14,871 nucleotides of DNA, taken from Gemmatimonadota bacterium. GTDB lineage: Bacteria; Gemmatimonadota; Gemmatimonadetes; Longimicrobiales; RSA9. A program made the position numbers. Location of the stretch: contig JBBDRO010000113.1 of assembly GCA_040905425.1 (NCBI GenBank), forward strand, positions 1 to 14,871, read 5' to 3'. Of the stretch, positions 3,001-14,871 are shown piece after piece. Each line of letters begins with the position of its first letter. Within the stretch, counting starts at the first letter, position 1.

Positions 3001-6000
3001 TGCTCGGCCTGGAACCGGGCGCCTTCGCACGCTACCGGGACGCCGCCGGCAGCGAGGTGATTGCCACCAGCGTGCCGGTGGAAGGCTTCCCCTGGCACTA
3101 CGTGGCCCAGGCGCCGCTCGACGCCGCGCTGGCGCCGCTGCGCATGCTGCGCGGCGTTTCCGCCCTGCTCGAGGGGCTCCTGGCGGTCGGTCTGGCCGTC
3201 CTTGCCTGGCTTGTGGCCGGTCAGATCGTGGCCCCTGTGCGTCGTCTGGTGGCCGCGGCGCGGCGGGTCGGCCAGGGGGAGGCCATGGTGAGCGTGGAGC
3301 CCGCCGGCAGTGACGAGATCGGCGAGCTCACCACCGCATTCAATGACATGACGACCGAGCTGGCTACGGCTTCGGCCCGGGTGCGCCAGCTGCACCAGCG
3401 GGAGATCGAGCGGGCCAACCAGCTGGCCACGGTGGGAGAGCTGGCCAGCGGCGTGGCGCACGAGCTCAAGAACCCCCTCGTAGGGGTCTCCAACGGCATG
3501 GACCTGGTCCGGCGCCGTGTGGGTGAAGATCCCTCCGTAGCTCCGATCATGGACGAGATGGCGCGCCAGCTCGATCGCATGCACGGTGCCGTGCGTGATC
3601 TGCTGACCTTCGCGCGGCCCACCGCGCCGAAGCTCGAAGCGCTGGATGCCAATACGGTACTGGACAGGGCGGCCCGCCTCGTCCAGCCCGCCGCCGAGCA
3701 CGCGGGGGTGGAGCAGATCATTCGCGCCACCAGAGAACTCCCGCCGCTCCGTGCTGACGAGGAACTGCTCCGTCAGGCGCTGGTCAACCTGGCCATGAAC
3801 GCCGTACAGGCCACGCCGGAGGGCGGTTGCGTCAGCCTGTCCTCGCACTACGCCGATGGCTGCGTGGAAATGCGCGTGAGTGACACGGGGCGCGGCATAC
3901 CGCGTGACCAGCTCGCTGATATCTTCAAGCCGTTCTTCACGACGCGTCACAACGGCACCGGGCTGGGACTGTCCATCACCAGGGAGATCGTTGAACGTCA
4001 TGGCGGCCGCCTGGACGTGCGCAGCCGGCTGGGCCACGGCACCACGTTCTCCATCCATCTGCCCGTGAACATGAACGCGGGGTGCGCCCACACCGGCGCT
4101 CGCTCGTTGACGGGGGCCCGGACATGAAGATCGAAGGCAGAGTAAAGCAGCCCCGGGAGAGCCGCCCGACCAGCGCACGCCCCGCCGCGTCGCGGCCAGG
4201 CCCTGCCGGACAACGCGTCGTCGTCTGTGATGATGAACTGCTCATCCGTATGTGGCTCGAGGACCACCTGCGGGAGGAGGGCTACGAGGTGGAGACGGTG
4301 GCGGACGGCGGCGCGCTCCTGAGCGCCCTCGATACCACACCCGCCGACCTGGTTCTGCTGGATCTGCGGCTTCCCGATGGCCTGGGCATCGATCTGCTTC
4401 CTGAGCTCAAGCAGGCGGACCCGTCCATGCCGGTGATCATGATGACGGCCTACGGCGAAGTCGAGACAGCGGTCTCCGCCGTGCGCCGCGGCGCCCACCA
4501 CTTCCTGGAAAAGCCCATCGCGCTTCCTGAACTGCTCCTGCTCATCGAGCAGGCGTTGGACACCCGGCGGCTGCGCAACGAGGTGGAGCGCTACCGGGAC
4601 GGCTTTCGCTGGCAGTTCGCCGGCGTGACACTCGTGGGTCGGTCGCTGGCCATGCGCCGGGTGGCGGAGCTCATCACGCGGATCGGCAGCCGCGGCGCGC
4701 CCACGTACGTGCTCATACGCGGTGACAGCGGCACCGGCAAGGATGTGGTGGCGCGCGCCATTCACGCTCGCGGGCCGCGGGCCGGCCGGCCCTTCATCAA
4801 CGTGAACTGCACCGCTCTGCCCGAGCACCTGGTGGAAAGTGAACTCTTCGGGCACGAACGAGGCGCGTTCACCGACGCACGCGAGGATAAGAAGGGGCTC
4901 TTCGAACTGGCCGACGGGGGCACCATCTTCCTGGACGAGATCGGTGACATGCCGCGCGCCGCGCAGGCCAAACTCCTGGGTGTCCTGGAGACCCACACCC
5001 TGCGCCGTGTGGGCGGCGTGCGTGACATCGAGGTGGACGTGCACGTGCTGGCCGCCACCAACCGGGACATCGAGGCCGCCGTGGGTCGCGGCGATTTCAG
5101 GGAGGATCTGTTCTATCGGCTGAACGTCGTGCCGATCATCCTGCCGGCGCTGCGCGAGCGCCCGGAGGACATCGGGCCGCTGGCGCTGCACTTCACGGCC
5201 ACGCTGGCAGGGGAGCTCCGTGCGCCGCCTCGCACGTTGACGCCGGAGGCGATCCAGCTGCTGGAGCGCAGTCCGTGGCCGGGCAACGCCCGCCAGTTGC
5301 GCAACATCCTGGAGCGGGCGCTGCTCCTGCACGACGGCGAAGTCCTGGGGGTGGAACAGCTGCCGGATGATTTAGTGGGCGTCGCGGGCGGGAAGGACGC
5401 CCCCCGCATGGTGCTGCCACCCACGGGGCTCAGCCTGGACGAGCTGGAGCGGGAACTCATCTGCCAGGCGCTGGAGCGTACCGACGGCAACAAGACGGGC
5501 GCGGCCCGCCTCCTCGGCCTCTCCCGTGACACGCTACGCTACAGGCTCGAGAAATACCGCATCGGGTGAGCTGGGTCGGCCTTCCGCCCCCGGGCGGCCG
5601 TCACTGGATCGGGGCGTCGACCACCACGTAGCCGAGGACCGTGAACACCACCACGTAGACCAGCGCCAGCAGGGCCGCGGCCGTCCAGCCGGGGCTCCGT
5701 TCCTCACGCGCCGCGCGCCGATCCAGGAACGGCAGGAACAGCAGCACGACCGCCGCCAGCCCGAAGCCGAGGACGCCCACCAGCTCACCCTCGATGCCCA
5801 GGACGTGGGCGGGGACGTACTTCAGCGTCTGGAACATGAACATGAAGTACCATTCGGGCCGGATACCGGCGGGCGCCGGCGCGAACGCATCGGCCTTCAC
5901 GCCCAGGTGGGCCGGGAAGAACGCCGCCATGCTCGCCAGAATGGCCAGCGCCACCAGCCAGCCGATGAGATCACGCAGCAGGAAATTCGGGAAGAAGGGC

Positions 6001-12000: not shown

Positions 12001-14871
12001 CCGCACGCCAGCGCGTCATGGGCTTCATGCCCCTGCGGGGTACCGTGGCAGGAGCGGCACGCCACGCTGCCATGCTCCTCGTGCGGGAATCCACCCGCCG
12101 CGGCCTCCTCTGCCGCAGCCACCGGCCCGCGCTCCGGTCCGGCGGCCACCACCGTGATGCTGTCCGGCGCTGCCGCATCCACACCCGCGTCATCGGCGGA
12201 CGTCACCCCTTCGTCCCCGGTGGGTGCGCACGCCACCGTCAGCAGCAGTGCCAGCACGATTCTCCTGCCCCCTGGCCTCATCCCGCCCCTCCCCCTCAGC
12301 GCCCGAGCACGTTCTCCAGGGTAATGTCGGCAAAGCCGTCCACCGCGTATTCCGCGCGCACCTGCCGGATGCTCGCCGTGAGCAGCGCCTCCACGAGGAA
12401 CGGGTTGTGGATGGCTGAACCGGGCTGCGCGGCGAGCTGAGCGTTGAACCGGGCCCCCTCCGCGGTGGAGAGGCGGCCGTCCCCGTCGTTGAACTCGCCG
12501 GCGGGCACCTGCTCCAGCAGGGCGTTCAGCGTGGTCTCGAGCGCGTCCAGGCGGATGCGCACCACGCCCAGTACGGAGCGCACGGCATCCTCACTGCCGT
12601 GGCAGCCGCCCGCCGTGCAGGAGCGGTACGTCCGCTCGGCCGGCGCGCAATCCTCGGAGGCGGTGGGCAGGCCAGCCGCGTTCACACACGGGATGGCCTT
12701 GAAGAGGTGGCCGGAGGCGTTCAGCAGGAACTCCCCGGTGGCTGGATCGGTGAACTCGGACCGCATGACGTGGCAACCGGCGCACAGCCGGGGGTTCTGC
12801 CCGGTGCCGTGCGTGGCCACGATACTGCCCGGCTCGTAGGCAAAGTTGGGCGGGATCCAGCCCACGTCCGTGCCGAGGAGGAGCGGCCCCTGAGGGGAGT
12901 GCGGACCGTAGGACGGCCGCGCCAGGTCGGGCACGGCCCGCTTGTGATGGCACTTCATGCACAGGTTGCCCTCCACCGACGGAACGTCGATGGGGAAGCG
13001 TAGCTGGCGGGGGTTGGTGGCATCGTGCGGGTCGTGGCACACGGCACAGGTGATGGGCACCACGTCCTCGTGCCCCTGCCGCTCGGTGAAGTTGGCGCTC
13101 ACCCCCCAGGAATCGAGCGCCCCGCGCGCTTCATGGCACCCCACGCAGGCGTCCCGCGTGCTGGCGAAGTTGGTGCGCCGGCCGTGTCGCGAGGCCGCCC
13201 ATTCCTCGACGAACGGGTTGTGCGCGCCCGTATGGCACTCACCACAGCCGCTGGTGGCGTCCGGTCCCACCTCGATGGAAGCCAGGGGCTGGGACGCGTC
13301 CGGATTGGTGACGTGCTGCAGCCCGGGGCCGTGGCAGCTCTCACACTGCACGTCCTGATAGCGCGGATCCCCGGTGGCCGTCCACCCCACCGCTACGGTT
13401 TCCACGTGGTTGCCACGGGCACCCACGGTGTGGCAACCCTCACACGTTTCGGCGGCATGACCGCTCTCCTGCAAGGAGCTCCACGCATGGGCATGCGCGG
13501 TCTGGCGCCACTCGGCGTTCTTCCCCACATGGCAGCCGCCGCACACGGGCCGGCCCTCCGTCAACTGGGAATAACCCAGGAAGCCGGCCGCGGCCTCCGG
13601 CGGCGGCTCCTCGCTGATCTCCACGACGGTGAGCCGCTCCGTGCAACCGGCCGCACTCACCAGCGCCACCGTCATCAGCCACCGCATCCACCCTGCACGT
13701 GCCGGCATGAGCCTCTCCGTTGTGTCTGTGGCGGGAATGGGCCGGCCTCGGCGCCGACGCCACGCATCCGCTGCCCGCGTCACGCCGAGCGTCGGCGTGC
13801 CAGTTGAAGCGCCACGATGACCACCGGGCTGACCAGCCAGACCGTGGCACCCAGCGCCAGGATCACGGCCCCGAGGGCCGTGACGTGCAACTCCGTCCAC
13901 CAGATGGCCGGCCGGGCCCGCACGAACGCCACGGCCAGCACACCGAACGTCGTGATCAGCACCGCCGTACCGATGCGGTAGTGCGGCCAGCGCTCATAGG
14001 CGTTGTGCAGCGCCTGCCAGCCCTCCACCGCGGCCCACAGGCAGATGAACACGGCGGCGGCCCAGGCGATGGCCACTCCGGCGGAAACGGTGAGCGACCC
14101 ACCCGGGCCCGTGGCGCCCGTGAGCCCGACCCACGCCGCCACCAGCCACGCCGCCCCCAGCGCCGGGATCTCGTACAGAGCCGAGCGCAGCAGCCGGCGG
14201 ACGGCTTCTCCACGCCCCATGGCGGCGGGCCGTCCCAGCATGCCGAGCGCCCCGCCGTGCACATAGCCAAGCACCGCCCCGGCCGCGAACAGGACGGTCA
14301 TGATCACCAGGAATCCGGAGCTCACGATCTGATCGTTCACGGCCACCCAGACGCCTCCGGTGATGATGCCCGTGGCCATGGACCAGCTCAGTGCCACCTT
14401 CTCGGGCAGGGAGATCCACGGCTGCTCCATCTCCCGGACTGTTTCCCTGGCCACCGTGTCGCGCGCCATCGCTCGCATGACATCCTCCCGTGGTGCCGCT
14501 CGGCACCGGAATTGGGTGCTTGCCTGCTCTATTTCCGGAGCCCCGGGGGGCTCTGATGGCGTTGCGAATCGGTGCCGCGATCAGGGGCGGAGGGAGGTCC
14601 GCTGGTCCCTTAACACGGGGCAACGGCCATACCGACCGCCCGGCAAGGGCCCAACACGTTGACCTGCAGTGCTTTAAGCCGTTTCGGGCGAATGAGGCCG
14701 CCGTGGCCGAACGCGCCATTTGCCCCAACCTGGTCGCGACCGCCGGGGCATATGACCCACCTCGACCGCCGACCGCAGCCTTGCCGTCCCACGCCACGGC
14801 CCCTTAGCTTGGACGCCACATACGACGAACGGGGCCCTCAGGAAGTCCGGTGAGAAACCGGCGCGGCCCCG

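Follow-up and report, generated by a model that had tools for sequence, protein, structure and literature searches.

Does a row of seven genes on the minus strand of a Gemmatimonadota contig encode an electron conduit across the cell envelope? The row lies at 5601-13708 in the order mhcA, mhcB, barrel, mhcD, mhcE, Rieske, cytochrome b (Table 1). We propose, with a probability of roughly 0.55, that it would carry electrons from (mena)quinol at the inner membrane to the cell surface. If this is true, the membrane quinone pool of an uncultured sediment bacterium is wired to its surface. The barrel of the proposed wire is common in the phylum Gemmatimonadota. The window is the whole stretch of 14,871 nucleotides that was analysed.

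Organization of the operon

Start and stop codons overlap as ATGA at four junctions (mhcB/barrel, barrel/mhcD, mhcD/mhcE and mhcE/Rieske). The Rieske and cytochrome b genes are separated by 1 base, and mhcA and mhcB by 14 bases. These overlaps and short gaps make a single transcription unit likely, and the seven genes are translationally coupled as judged from the sequence.

A preliminary description had listed this minus-strand row of cytochromes, a haem-free barrel, a Rieske protein and a cytochrome b, and the row was reproduced here. It had assigned 8, 9, 16 and 8 haems to the four cytochromes. The CXXCH counts for mhcA, mhcB, the barrel, mhcD and mhcE are 8, 9, 0, 16 and 9, respectively, so that the first three values hold as motif counts and the last, for mhcE, is 9 and not 8. 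As mhcA and mhcB each contain one more conserved CX4CH, they probably bind 9 and 10 haems.

The layout is not unprecedented. The Geobacter extHIJKLMNOPQS cluster combines multihaem cytochromes and a porin with Rieske and cytochrome b proteins (PMC5877670), and in a 2026 survey petB/petC were found within the porin-cytochrome clusters of four MAGs, including one from Gemmatimonadota (PMC13264449). The present operon follows the same logic as the Geobacter cluster with a different, unstudied outer-membrane barrel.

Table 1 Genes of the operon and its flanks.
Feature	Position	Strand	Characteristics
mhcA, lipoprotein multihaem cytochrome, 470 aa	12296-13708	-	8 CXXCH + 1 conserved CX4CH
mhcB, lipoprotein multihaem cytochrome, 271 aa	11466-12281	-	9 CXXCH + 1 CX4CH
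Outer-membrane beta-barrel, 489 aa	10000-11469	-	0 CXXCH, signal peptide, AlphaFold2 fold
mhcD, secreted 16-haem cytochrome, 471 aa	8588-10003	-	16 CXXCH
mhcE, 9-haem cytochrome, 427 aa	7308-8591	-	9 CXXCH, signal peptide, C-terminal transmembrane helix
Rieske 2Fe-2S protein, 179 aa	6772-7311	-	Pfam Rieske, TM_PetC
Cytochrome b, 389 aa	5601-6770	-	Pfam Cytochrome_B, Cytochrom_B_C
Polytopic membrane protein, 232 aa, family without name	13780-14478	-	Conserved beside mhcA (tblastn)
Cache/HAMP histidine kinase	2019/2244-4127	+	Pfam
Sigma-54-dependent response regulator	4082/4250-5569	+	Pfam

Distribution of the barrel and its gene neighbourhoods

The barrel family was seen almost only in Gemmatimonadota, where 181 of the 401 genomes sampled have it. 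One search returned 181 homologues and another 302 representatives; as stated earlier for the former number, the named ones are hypothetical proteins of Gemmatimonadota/Longimicrobiales. For synteny we used the best 80 related loci, 62 of which have at least 6 kb downstream of the barrel. The order barrel-mhcD-mhcE-Rieske-cytochrome b is found in 30 of these 62, in both Longimicrobiales and Gemmatimonadales MAGs. By its position, mhcD appears to be the invariable partner of the barrel (directly downstream in 78 of the 80 loci, with the other 2 ending at the barrel).

The barrel/16-haem core appears to be modular and to adjoin differing quinone-pool modules. A NapA-like, 5-haem, 4-haem, DsrO-like and DsrP set stands beside it in 13 of the best 80 loci, and a set of an FdnI-like b and an 11-haem cytochrome in 3 loci and on contig C25 of this genome. 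The barrel tree tracks these locus types: 26 of 28 rows of type I (mhcE/Rieske/cytochrome b tail) group together (SH-aLRT 98), and the clade that they form is sister to the Mo-linked one (SH-aLRT 100). The paralogous trio claimed on C25 is real, with a tblastn barrel match (44% identity over 467 aa, E 4e-107) between two ORFs that have 17 and 18 CXXCH; the mhcB paralogue there is longer and has 17. The C25 core is joined to the FdnI-like b and 11-haem set, whereas the operon under study has the Rieske/cytochrome b tail. The third candidate set, on C103, turned out to be a different system of the PCC4/Ptd type.

The Rieske protein and cytochrome b

The Rieske protein (Pfam Rieske 4.2e-13, plus TM_PetC) has a twin-arginine motif, SRRRF, and a transmembrane anchor. 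Its boxes CTHLDC and CACHNGHY are conserved among 28 sequences, and the Rieske subunits of b6f complexes are its closest solved relatives. The cytochrome b is a fusion of a b6-like and a subunit-IV-like part with 7 predicted helices (Cytochrome_B 4.5e-52, Cytochrom_B_C 2e-13), and cytochrome b6 is the closest solved relative (E 7.9e-61). It contains His118/His132, His219/His234 and PEWY at 305 and has no Cys; the four haem-b His and PEWY are conserved. The NCBIfam model ExtP scored 203.8 bits against it, under the cut-off of 290. Because the haem motifs, Rieske boxes, haem-b His and PEWY are invariant or conserved, the cofactor sites of the operon's cytochromes, Rieske protein and cytochrome b are under selection.

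The clade of this cytochrome b, defined by at least 61% identity, occurs in 39 of the 401 sampled genomes; all 39 also have the barrel family, which in the whole sample is present in 181. Apart from the genome studied here, 38 genomes have the clade, and in at least 21 of them the listed matches, read by eye, lie within 10 kb on a single contig. From this distribution the clade is not the general complex III of the phylum. A second cytochrome b of this genome is encoded on contig C30, beside a haem-copper oxidase gene.

It could be argued that the genes do not work together and that an ordinary complex III with multihaem subunits happens to lie beside an outer-membrane protein unrelated to it. 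Porin-free Rieske/cytochrome b complexes with multihaem c subunits are known; PMC5317091 has Caldithrix as one example and also cites the proposal by Dibrova et al. This reading comes close to being refuted by the ATGA overlaps throughout the row, the gene order kept in 30 of 62 loci, the barrel in 39 of 39 genomes with this cytochrome b, and the rarity of the clade, which at about one-tenth of the sampled genomes is not a housekeeping complex. We regard it as hardly tenable.

Sequence and fold of the barrel

The barrel has a signal peptide ending in AVPLQAQ. In agreement with the earlier account, it matched nothing in Pfam or NCBIfam, nor any PDB sequence, and none of 40 members of its family matched MtrB_PioB at E<=1. 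Our AlphaFold2 model (pLDDT 81.5, pTM 0.73) has short loops and no plug domain, and its strands number 24 long ones plus a 2-strand mini-hairpin in place of the roughly 26 long antiparallel strands given before. Foldseek placed MOMP 5ldt first (E 1.1e-11), followed by AlgE, chitoporin, FimD and OmpM1, and VIA-align gave FyuA (Z 17.4), FimD (Z 16.2) and, at rank 15, MtrB 6r2q_B (Z 15.0). All matches from both programs are outer-membrane barrels, in line with the fold modelled previously. The barrels that match the fold best have 22 to 26 strands and hold a protein in the lumen: TonB-dependent transporters, ushers and MtrB.

The modelled fold resembles large barrels, MtrB included, but none in particular. 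This general likeness, with MtrB no higher than rank 15 in VIA-align and 18-strand porins at the top in Foldseek, counts against the conduit.

The multihaem cytochromes

In mhcD, all 16 CXXCH and 16 further His are invariant among 38 sequences. The cytochrome mhcE takes the place in the row that cytochrome c1 or f has in Rieske/cytochrome b operons. It has 9 CXXCH in 25 of 26 orthologue calls, and its C-terminal transmembrane helix spans residues 391-409; most orthologues show a C-terminal hydrophobic anchor, with an extra tail after it in 8 longer forms.

In an alignment of 34 sequences of mhcA, the lipobox Cys22 is nearly invariant, and the 8 CXXCH and C364/C369/H370 (the CX4CH) are invariant. 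mhcB (Pfam Cytochrom_CIII and Cytochrome_C7) has a lipobox Cys and then a long acidic Ala/Pro-rich tether; 9 full-length orthologue rows were compared. The lipoboxes of both are conserved, a feature shared with the surface cytochromes MtrC and OmcB. We infer that mhcA and mhcB are exposed at the surface; that lipoproteins can also face the periplasm counts against this.

The mhcA family profile matched OmhA 6qvm_A (E 5.9e-20, profile positions 83-445) and OcwA 6i5b_A (E 1.1e-14) among PDB sequences. The weak mhcA model (pLDDT 62.9) gave OcwA, OmhA and NrfA as top Foldseek matches, at E 5e-3 and worse. By its profile, mhcA is a homologue of the surface Fe(III) reductases OmhA and OcwA, which PMC9250108 names as the cytochromes of the S-layer and the cell wall in Firmicutes that reduce Fe(III).

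Only 7 distal His candidates are conserved in mhcA for 9 haems, so that one or two haems could be open to a substrate. The operon might encode a respiratory reductase that stays in the periplasm and acts on a soluble substrate, such as an oxyanion (selenite, tellurite, nitrite) or a sulfur compound, with the barrel as a dedicated diffusion channel, the role proposed for Geobacter ExtI. ExtI, whose link to selenite and tellurite counts against the conduit as it is the nearest analogue in the literature, is porin-like, is clustered with multihaem cytochromes, Rieske protein and cytochrome b, and is tied, in the account given in PMC5877670, to selenite and tellurite reduction and not to mineral reduction. 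The cytochrome c554/NrfA/HAO/OcwA group in which mhcA falls includes small-molecule enzymes (PMC9250108), and MOMP, AlgE and chitoporin, which rank first in Foldseek, are substrate channels. However, with about 24 strands, short loops and no plug, the barrel is far wider than the known substrate-specific channels of 16-18 strands and would need protein in its lumen. It has no sequence relation to the ExtI-type phosphate-selective porins (no Pfam match), its invariable partner is the wire-like 16-haem mhcD and not the enzyme-like mhcA, and 44 c-type haems are many for such a reductase. We consider this role quite improbable.

Proposed electron transfer pathway

Beyond the observed gene content and cofactor motifs, the porin-cytochrome layout beside a quinol-oxidising unit, as put forward in the preliminary description, is supported at the level of sequence analysis by the coupling, synteny (30/62), cytochrome b/barrel co-occurrence (39/39), large plugless barrel and mhcA homology. 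In the proposed conduit, the Qo site of the cytochrome b would oxidise quinol and the Rieske cluster would take an electron. This would then enter the 9-haem mhcE, held at the inner membrane by its C-terminal helix as in cytochrome c1, and move on to the 16-haem mhcD, which we infer to be inserted partly inside the 24-strand barrel. Next in line would be the two lipoproteins, mhcB with 10 haems and the OmhA/OcwA-like mhcA with 9. The presumed outward flow would end at an insoluble or high-potential acceptor outside the cell, such as Fe(III)/Mn(IV) oxides, humics or a partner cell. With a Rieske/cytochrome b unit as the quinol oxidase, export would be Q-cycle coupled and would conserve energy.

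The genome has four haem-copper oxidase genes and the organism is thus an aerobe, which counts against the conduit, and metal respiration is not known from any cultured Gemmatimonadota. The potential of a Rieske centre is usually above that of bis-His multihaem cytochromes, which could make electron transfer from the Rieske protein to mhcE unfavourable.

The oxidase genes would suit an inward conduit, in which Fe(II), Mn(II), reduced humics, a cathode or a partner cell outside the cell would supply electrons that pass to periplasmic or membrane acceptors, e.g., terminal oxidases. The Rieske/cytochrome b unit would then reverse to reduce quinone, or link the chain to the pool; such units can run in reverse, as the bc1 complex does in Acidithiobacillus ferrooxidans. 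The DNA occurs in sediment metagenomes, and the sister barrel subfamily with a NapA-like periplasmic molybdoenzyme and DsrOP-like module (the 13 of 80 loci) would suit transfer from a donor to nitrate. With that NapA-like reductase, uptake of electrons or a chain confined to the periplasm would be no worse a fit than export. Porin-cytochrome systems operate in either direction (PMC6295460). On the other hand, RuBisCO was not found in the genome, which is 96.7% complete, so reverse flow for Calvin-cycle CO2 fixation is not expected and the usual reason for uphill Rieske/cytochrome b flow is missing, and for downhill flow to oxidases the unit would be needless in the same operon. Surface lipoprotein cytochromes are absent from the known MtoAB and PioAB clusters, which serve Fe(II) oxidation (PMC5566968), whereas this operon has two predicted ones, one homologous to Fe(III) reductases. 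Inward flow therefore seems unlikely to us, if worth keeping in mind, and export to the surface is preferred.

Flanking genes and candidate regulators

The limits 5601-13708 given earlier leave out a conserved gene 71 bases upstream of mhcA, which encodes the 232-aa membrane protein and is possibly the first gene of the operon. Homologues were found by tblastn in 18 of the 80 related loci, directly upstream of mhcA on the same strand in 14 of the 18, and a 40%-identical paralogue adjoins the C25 cluster. The protein had no match in Pfam or NCBIfam and no informative one in the ESM Atlas. Convergent with the operon is the histidine kinase and response regulator pair (2019..5569, plus strand), which are candidate regulators of it; no sigma-54 promoter was found. 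Orthologues of the pair, with 61-71% identity for the regulator, occur next to 8 of 30 type I loci, and their position varies.

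Organization of the operon

The seven genes stand in one row on the minus strand of contig C113 (G+C 69–75%), one of the 115 contigs of the 4.12-Mb genome G000. Four junctions are ATGA overlaps, and the two remaining gaps measure 1 and 14 bases. Such overlaps join the barrel gene to both of its neighbours, mhcB and mhcD, which encode cytochromes with nine and 16 CXXCH motifs, so the barrel gene lies directly beside multihaem c-type cytochrome genes, as in a porin-cytochrome cluster.

Genes of the operon and related features. Strands are those reported; L-numbers are related loci and C-numbers contigs of G000.
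Feature	Location	Strand	Length (aa)	CXXCH	Description
mhcA	12296-13708	-	470	8	lipoprotein cytochrome
mhcB	11466-12281	-	271	9	lipoprotein cytochrome
barrel	10000-11469	-	489	0	haem-free
mhcD	8588-10003	-	471	16	secreted cytochrome
mhcE	7308-8591	-	427	9	membrane-anchored cytochrome
Rieske	6772-7311	-	179		2Fe-2S protein
cytochrome b	5601-6770	-	389		fused b6/subunit IV type
membrane protein	13780-14478	-	232		polytopic, of no known family
NapA-like set	L046:12820-19198				also in L032, L033, L044, L048, L051, L053, L060, L062, L065, L066, L067, L072
FdnI-like set	C25:28067-31514 (L111:14067-17514)	opposite			about 6 kb from the C25 paralogue; kinase and sigma-54 regulator, then cytochromes

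The preliminary description gave the last cytochrome, MhcE, eight haems; our motif count is nine. MhcA and MhcB each contain one extra CX4CH motif that is kept in the orthologues, and because of these motifs the haem load of the operon is probably 9 + 10 + 16 + 9 = 44. Lipoboxes are found at the start of MhcA and MhcB, whereas the barrel and MhcD carry ordinary signal peptides. The lipobox Cys22 of MhcA is nearly invariant in 34 sequences, and the lipobox of MhcB is likewise conserved. In MhcD, the 16 CXXCH motifs are accompanied by 16 further histidines, all of them invariant in 38 sequences from all locus types, which fits a protein that would hold 16 bis-His haems. MhcE combines a signal peptide with a transmembrane helix in its C-terminal part (391-409), and its stop codon overlaps the Rieske start. 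It is a membrane-anchored, multihaem c-type subunit that is neither cytochrome c1 nor cytochrome f.

The Rieske protein (Pfam Rieske, 4.2e-13) has an SRRRF Tat motif and a helix at 46-64, and its cluster boxes CTHLDC and CACHNGHY are conserved in 28 sequences. Box II has a Gly at the position that is Ser in high-potential Rieske proteins, which predicts a centre of the menaquinol type at roughly +100 to +150 mV; with MhcE haems at about 0 mV or higher, forward transfer to MhcE would be possible. Cytochrome b possesses the ligands of haems bL and bH (His118/132 and His219/234) and the PEWY motif of the Qo site at 305, all of which are conserved. With HX14H in helix D it is of the b6 type, fused to a subunit-IV part, and cytochromes b6 are its closest solved relatives (E 7.9e-61). 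It is not a cytochrome b6f protein proper, as it contains no Cys, the ligand of haem ci, and is a single unsplit chain with seven predicted helices. Cluster ligands, four haem-b histidines with PEWY and an anchored c-type subunit together place the module in the Rieske/cytochrome b (bc1/b6f) superfamily.

Residues 16-23 of the Rieske protein, in the cytoplasmic N-terminal extension, read CRDCPKPC. Since this stretch is not conserved across 27 orthologue calls, it is probably without function, or the Rieske start codon probably lies further downstream. In 14 related loci the gene immediately upstream of mhcA encodes the 232-aa polytopic membrane protein, of which a paralogue adjoins the C25 cluster. 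This membrane protein matched no Pfam or NCBIfam family, and the ESM Atlas gave nothing above 0.83.

On the plus strand, genes for a PAS hybrid kinase, a Cache/HAMP kinase and a sigma-54-dependent response regulator (Pfam) converge on the operon. A search of the window for the sigma-54 consensus with up to three mismatches gave 18 matches against 27.8 expected, none of them upstream of the operon, and the exact core was matched in one of 114 loci, at an irrelevant place. Within 5300-14871, no sigma-70-like promoter and no intrinsic terminator were detected. No RNA data set was listed among those that contain 7308-13708.

A large outer-membrane barrel of an unnamed family

The barrel of the window has no Pfam match at E<=0.01 and no NCBIfam family. 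The MtrB_PioB model (PF11854) is matched by none of 40 family members at E<=1, and the sole matches in the Pfam scan are weak ones to Porin_4 (4 of the 40 members, best E 0.0044). A family profile searched by sequence against the solved structures in the PDB found nothing at E<=1.

An AlphaFold2 model built from a 40-sequence alignment (mean pLDDT 81.5, pTM 0.73) contains 24 long strands and a two-strand mini-hairpin, with short loops and no other domain or plug. The modelled barrel thus has at least 20 strands and no plug of its own, which would leave room for a cytochrome inside it, as in a porin-cytochrome complex. The Foldseek ranking is headed by MOMP (E 1.1e-11), AlgE, chitoporin, FimD and OmpM1, which reproduces the best hits of the preliminary description (MOMP, AlgE, OmpM1 and chitoporin). 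In an exhaustive VIA-align comparison, 22-strand TonB-dependent transporters lead (FyuA, Z 17.4), followed by the 24-strand usher FimD (Z 16.2), and the best matches are barrels of 22 to 26 strands. MtrB of the Mtr complex (PDB 6r2q) comes 15th (Z 15.0, 354 residues, rmsd 5.2). We therefore take the protein, as modelled, to be an outer-membrane barrel as large as those that enclose a protein in their lumen, and not specifically an MtrB-like one.

MhcA is related to surface multihaem reductases

A profile of MhcA built from 34 sequences matches OmhA (6qvm_A, E 5.9e-20) over profile positions 83-445 (about 360) and OcwA (6i5b_A, E 1.1e-14); cytochrome c554 and HAO are weaker. The homology to OmhA and OcwA covers the haem core and the C-terminal helical part, which places MhcA in the OmhA/OcwA family of multihaem cytochromes. 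OmhA is described as the undecahaem S-layer cytochrome of Carboxydothermus ferrireducens and OcwA as the nonahaem outer cell-wall cytochrome of Thermincola potens (PMC9250108); the identities of the two PDB chains are those given in that source and in the Foldseek titles. The AlphaFold2 model of MhcA is weak (pLDDT 62.9, N-terminal half under 50), and for this reason we relied on the sequence profile. Foldseek with the weak model ranks OcwA, OmhA and NrfA first, at E 5e-3 and worse (OcwA and OmhA at 5e-3 and 1e-2), with nothing at E<=0.001.

The probable nine haems of MhcA equal the number stated for OcwA, which like OmhA belongs to a Gram-positive Fe(III) reducer (PMC9250108). MhcA differs from both in being a diderm lipoprotein encoded beside a barrel. 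The identity is about 20%, and the likeness is one of overall homology.

Distribution and conserved neighbourhood

A word-indexed search with the barrel gave 181 proteins, the named ones being hypothetical proteins of Gemmatimonadota or Longimicrobiales. Among cluster representatives, 302 relatives were found at E<=0.001 and 105 at E<=1e-30, and 445 relatives were confirmed with one genome taken per species. The best 80 of these 445 loci comprise 78 named Gemmatimonadota and two entries labelled "uncultured bacterium". Of 401 genomes sampled from the phylum, 181 contain the family, which is represented in 81 of 148 genera. All ESM Atlas clusters nearest to the barrel lack a family and are mostly from Gemmatimonadota.

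Synteny was analysed by tblastn of the seven window proteins against the best 80 barrel loci. MhcD adjoins the barrel in 78 of them, and the remaining two loci end at the barrel. The order barrel, mhcD, mhcE, Rieske, cytochrome b, which we call type I, is found in 30 of the 62 loci whose sequence extends 6 kb or more beyond the barrel on its downstream side. The other 32 lack this tail, and 18 of the 80 are too short to tell. Motif numbers are nearly constant in the orthologue calls of type I loci: MhcA has eight CXXCH motifs in 24/26, MhcD 16 in 25/26 and MhcE nine in 25/26, the deviating counts being truncated gene calls. These counts omit L038, L040 and L083, loci of lower G+C in which the GC3-based caller failed and the genes were seen by tblastn. 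Orthologues of the Cache/HAMP kinase and the sigma-54 regulator flank 8/30 type I loci at variable positions.

The operon is real and conserved, and it is probably functional. Cytochromes b at least 61% identical to that of the window occur in 39 of the 401 sampled genomes, and the barrel family is present in all 39, as judged by comparing the genome lists by eye. The listed matches share a contig and fall within 10 kb in at least 21 of the other 38 genomes. A cytochrome b of 50-56% identity is present in nine genomes of another class, none of which has a barrel match. A second cytochrome b of G000, 30% identical, is encoded on contig C30 next to a haem-copper oxidase gene. The Rieske/cytochrome b pair of the window is a dedicated module and not a housekeeping complex III.

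Some loci depart from the common layout. On one complete Gemmatimonadales MAG chromosome (OY970192.1, 1300031-1343379; L071 and L089), a type I cluster and a type II cluster, that is, one with other neighbours, lie about 20 kb apart; the type II cluster encodes a 17-haem cytochrome, the barrel and a 16-haem cytochrome, followed by ccmFGH, and an additional mhcA-like gene stands after cytochrome b. The divergent barrels of L109:2-4854 and L110 (36% identical) have neither mhcA nor mhcB upstream. On the opposite strand of these two loci, a second divergent set encodes a 163-aa protein, a 427-aa cytochrome b and 8-haem and 17-haem cytochromes, so that two modules of the Rieske/cytochrome b type appear to surround one barrel.

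Other inner-membrane modules on the barrel/16-haem core

In 13 of the 80 loci, the core of barrel and 16-haem cytochrome is accompanied by a set that comprises a NapA-like molybdoenzyme with a Tat signal (578 bits, NapA cut-off 904), 5-haem and 4-haem cytochromes, an Fe-S protein similar to DsrO and an NrfD protein of the DsrP type (397 bits, cut-off 350). We rejected an ACIII/Qrc-like identity for this molybdopterin set, which belongs to type II loci, because of its NCBIfam matches (NapA-like, DsrO-like and DsrP-like). This neighbourhood, in which an enzyme similar to nitrate reductase lies next to a porin-cytochrome core, could be relevant to electron uptake linked with nitrate reduction.

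A further set, composed of an 11-haem cytochrome and a b-type cytochrome similar to FdnI/HydC, lies within about 8 kb of the core in L089, L096, L108 and the C25 paralogue, with a kinase and a sigma-54 regulator beside it. The C25 representative comprises an 11-haem cytochrome, a 289-aa FdnI/HydC-like b (PF01292, 30.6 bits) and a 13-haem lipoprotein-like cytochrome. This set looks like a split quinol oxidase of the CbcL type, the architecture of which is described in PMC6295460, and might serve the second conduit on C25.

A quick maximum likelihood tree of 66 barrels (IQ-TREE) unites 26 of the 28 type I barrels in a single clade (SH-aLRT 98). The barrels linked to the molybdoenzyme are sister to this clade (SH-aLRT 100), and the divergent type I loci L109 and L110 are placed elsewhere. 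As the clades follow the module type, the barrel subfamilies are old paralogues that travel with their own inner-membrane partners.

Cytochrome c maturation genes were seen near both locus types. ccmABC, then ccmF, a thioredoxin-like ccmG and ccmH adjoin many type II clusters (for example L098:292-6263 and L089:13095-16209); such genes also lie near some type I clusters, and ccmF is found in 23/80 loci.

Proposed electron path

The most economical reading of these gene contents is that the operon would encode a conduit leading from the quinone pool out to the surface of the cell. Quinol would be oxidised by the Rieske/cytochrome b unit, and MhcE would act in place of cytochrome c1. MhcD might then be the wire through the periplasm and the barrel, with MhcB and MhcA as putative outer lipoprotein reductases.

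Outward flow is favoured because a quinol oxidase is encoded in the same operon and because MhcA is homologous to Fe(III) reductases. It is also favoured by the surface-type lipoprotein cytochromes, which the Fe(II)-oxidising MtoAB/PioAB systems are described as lacking (PMC5566968), and by the failure to find RuBisCO in G000, which is 96.7% complete. The direction is nevertheless uncertain because porin-cytochrome systems are bidirectional, because the sister cluster type carries a NapA-like enzyme and because the organism is aerobic, having four haem-copper oxidase genes.

A more far-reaching version of the conduit, which we consider unlikely, is a modular trans-envelope wire specific to the phylum. 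Each of the paralogous cores of a 24-strand barrel and a 16-haem cytochrome would be firmly tied to its own quinone-pool module, namely Rieske/cytochrome b with a 9-haem "c1", a NapA-like enzyme with DsrOP-like proteins, or an 11-haem cytochrome together with an FdnI-like b. A single cell would thereby run several conduits for different redox windows. In the type found in the window, the c subunit of the Rieske/cytochrome b complex would form the initial stretch of an unbroken chain of about 44 haems that reaches the surface. Extracellular electron transfer would in that case be coupled to a Q cycle and therefore conserve energy. G000 has two of these conduit types.

Comparison with known systems

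The closest published architecture is the extHIJKLMNOPQS cluster of Geobacter sulfurreducens (GSU2940-GSU2930), in which a porin-like protein, multihaem cytochromes, a Rieske protein and a b6-type cytochrome b are clustered (PMC5877670). Its products are described as including the 12-haem ExtM, the 10-haem ExtN, the lipoprotein cytochrome ExtS, the Rieske protein ExtO and the cytochrome b ExtP, and it has in common with the window the order porin, large cytochromes, Rieske, cytochrome b (PMC5877670). Against the NCBIfam models, the window cytochrome b scores 203.8 bits for ExtP (cut-off 290) and MhcA 15.5 bits for ExtKL (cut-off 250), which makes MhcA no close relative of ExtKL, and neither MhcD nor MhcE matches ExtN or ExtM. 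The window barrel has no Pfam match, whereas ExtI is reported to be weakly similar to phosphate-selective porins (PMC5877670). Neither a rhodanese (ExtH) nor ExtJ was found in the Pfam scan of the called genes of the window. Cytochrome b is fused with the subunit-IV part here and split as ExtP/ExtQ in Geobacter, and the haem numbers differ, being 9, 10, 16 and 9 here. The Geobacter cluster, too, has no settled function.

MtrCAB of Shewanella (6r2q) and OmaB/OmbB/OmcB of Geobacter likewise combine a large barrel with secreted and lipoprotein multihaem cytochromes. The window barrel, however, bears no sequence relation to MtrB in the MtrB_PioB and PDB profile searches, and has about 24 strands as compared with the 26 of MtrB. 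Its periplasmic partner has 16 haems, against 10 in those systems. Quinol oxidation is assigned to a Rieske/cytochrome b unit of the same operon here, and to CymA, ImcH or CbcL, encoded elsewhere, in the Mtr and Omc systems. Multihaem-c Rieske/cytochrome b complexes, in which a multihaem cytochrome replaces c1/f as the Rieske acceptor, are attributed to Dibrova et al. 2013 in PMC5317091; an onward 16-haem protein and a barrel in the operon distinguish the present case from the complexes as described there.

PCC4/Ptd clusters (He et al. 2017) are marked by a di-haem membrane protein of five helices that contains HX13H twice, together with an Fe-S protein and cytochromes of four, five and ten haems (PMC5566968). 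In place of these the window encodes a genuine pair of Rieske protein and cytochrome b. The C103 cluster of G000, with a cNMP-binding 4Fe-4S protein, a 245-aa membrane protein and a 10-CXXCH cytochrome (Pfam), fits PCC4 by the features given in that source.

A 2026 survey of MAGs from groundwater and ghost-rock reports petB and petC in several porin-cytochrome clusters (PMC13264449). Of the four MAGs with such clusters, three are Acidobacteriota and one is SAW209, of the Gemmatimonadales family GWC2-71-9 (PMC13264449); the SAW209 cluster, likened by description rather than by sequence, is probably of the same kind as the window operon. In its passages on petB/petC clusters, the survey does not deal with the barrel family, the phylum distribution, the conservation of haem motifs or alternative modules, and it equates these clusters with PCC4 (PMC13264449), whose membrane protein is described elsewhere as a 5-helix, ferric-reductase-like protein and not as a Rieske/cytochrome b pair (PMC5566968). 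Full-text searches of the literature gave no further account of such a system; subscription journals and supplements may hold more.

The operon belongs to a known kind of system and is new in its build, at the centre of which stands an unnamed, phylum-wide barrel family; the architecture is interesting and not surprising in principle. To our knowledge, no metal respiration is known in the Gemmatimonadota, an abundant phylum of soil and sediment. If the conduit reading is correct, a large share of the phylum (181/401 genomes, 81/148 genera) could exchange electrons with minerals or partners. Surveys with Mtr, Omc or Cyc2 models would be blind to it, as the barrel matches none of them. The Rieske/cytochrome b unit would gain a part in extracellular electron transfer, long hinted at by the unsettled ext cluster of Geobacter. 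With the coupling within one operon and three alternative inner-membrane modules, the family would also be a natural model in which to study the link between quinol oxidation and outer-membrane conduits.

Other multihaem cytochromes of the genome

By crude gene calling, G000 encodes 15 proteins with at least four CXXCH motifs. All ten that have at least eight fall in three clusters, on C25, C103 and C113. At C61:7202-9181, a 172-aa protein with four CXXCH motifs adjoins a 480-aa protein with five, and by size and haem number the pair looks like an NrfH/NrfA nitrite reductase.
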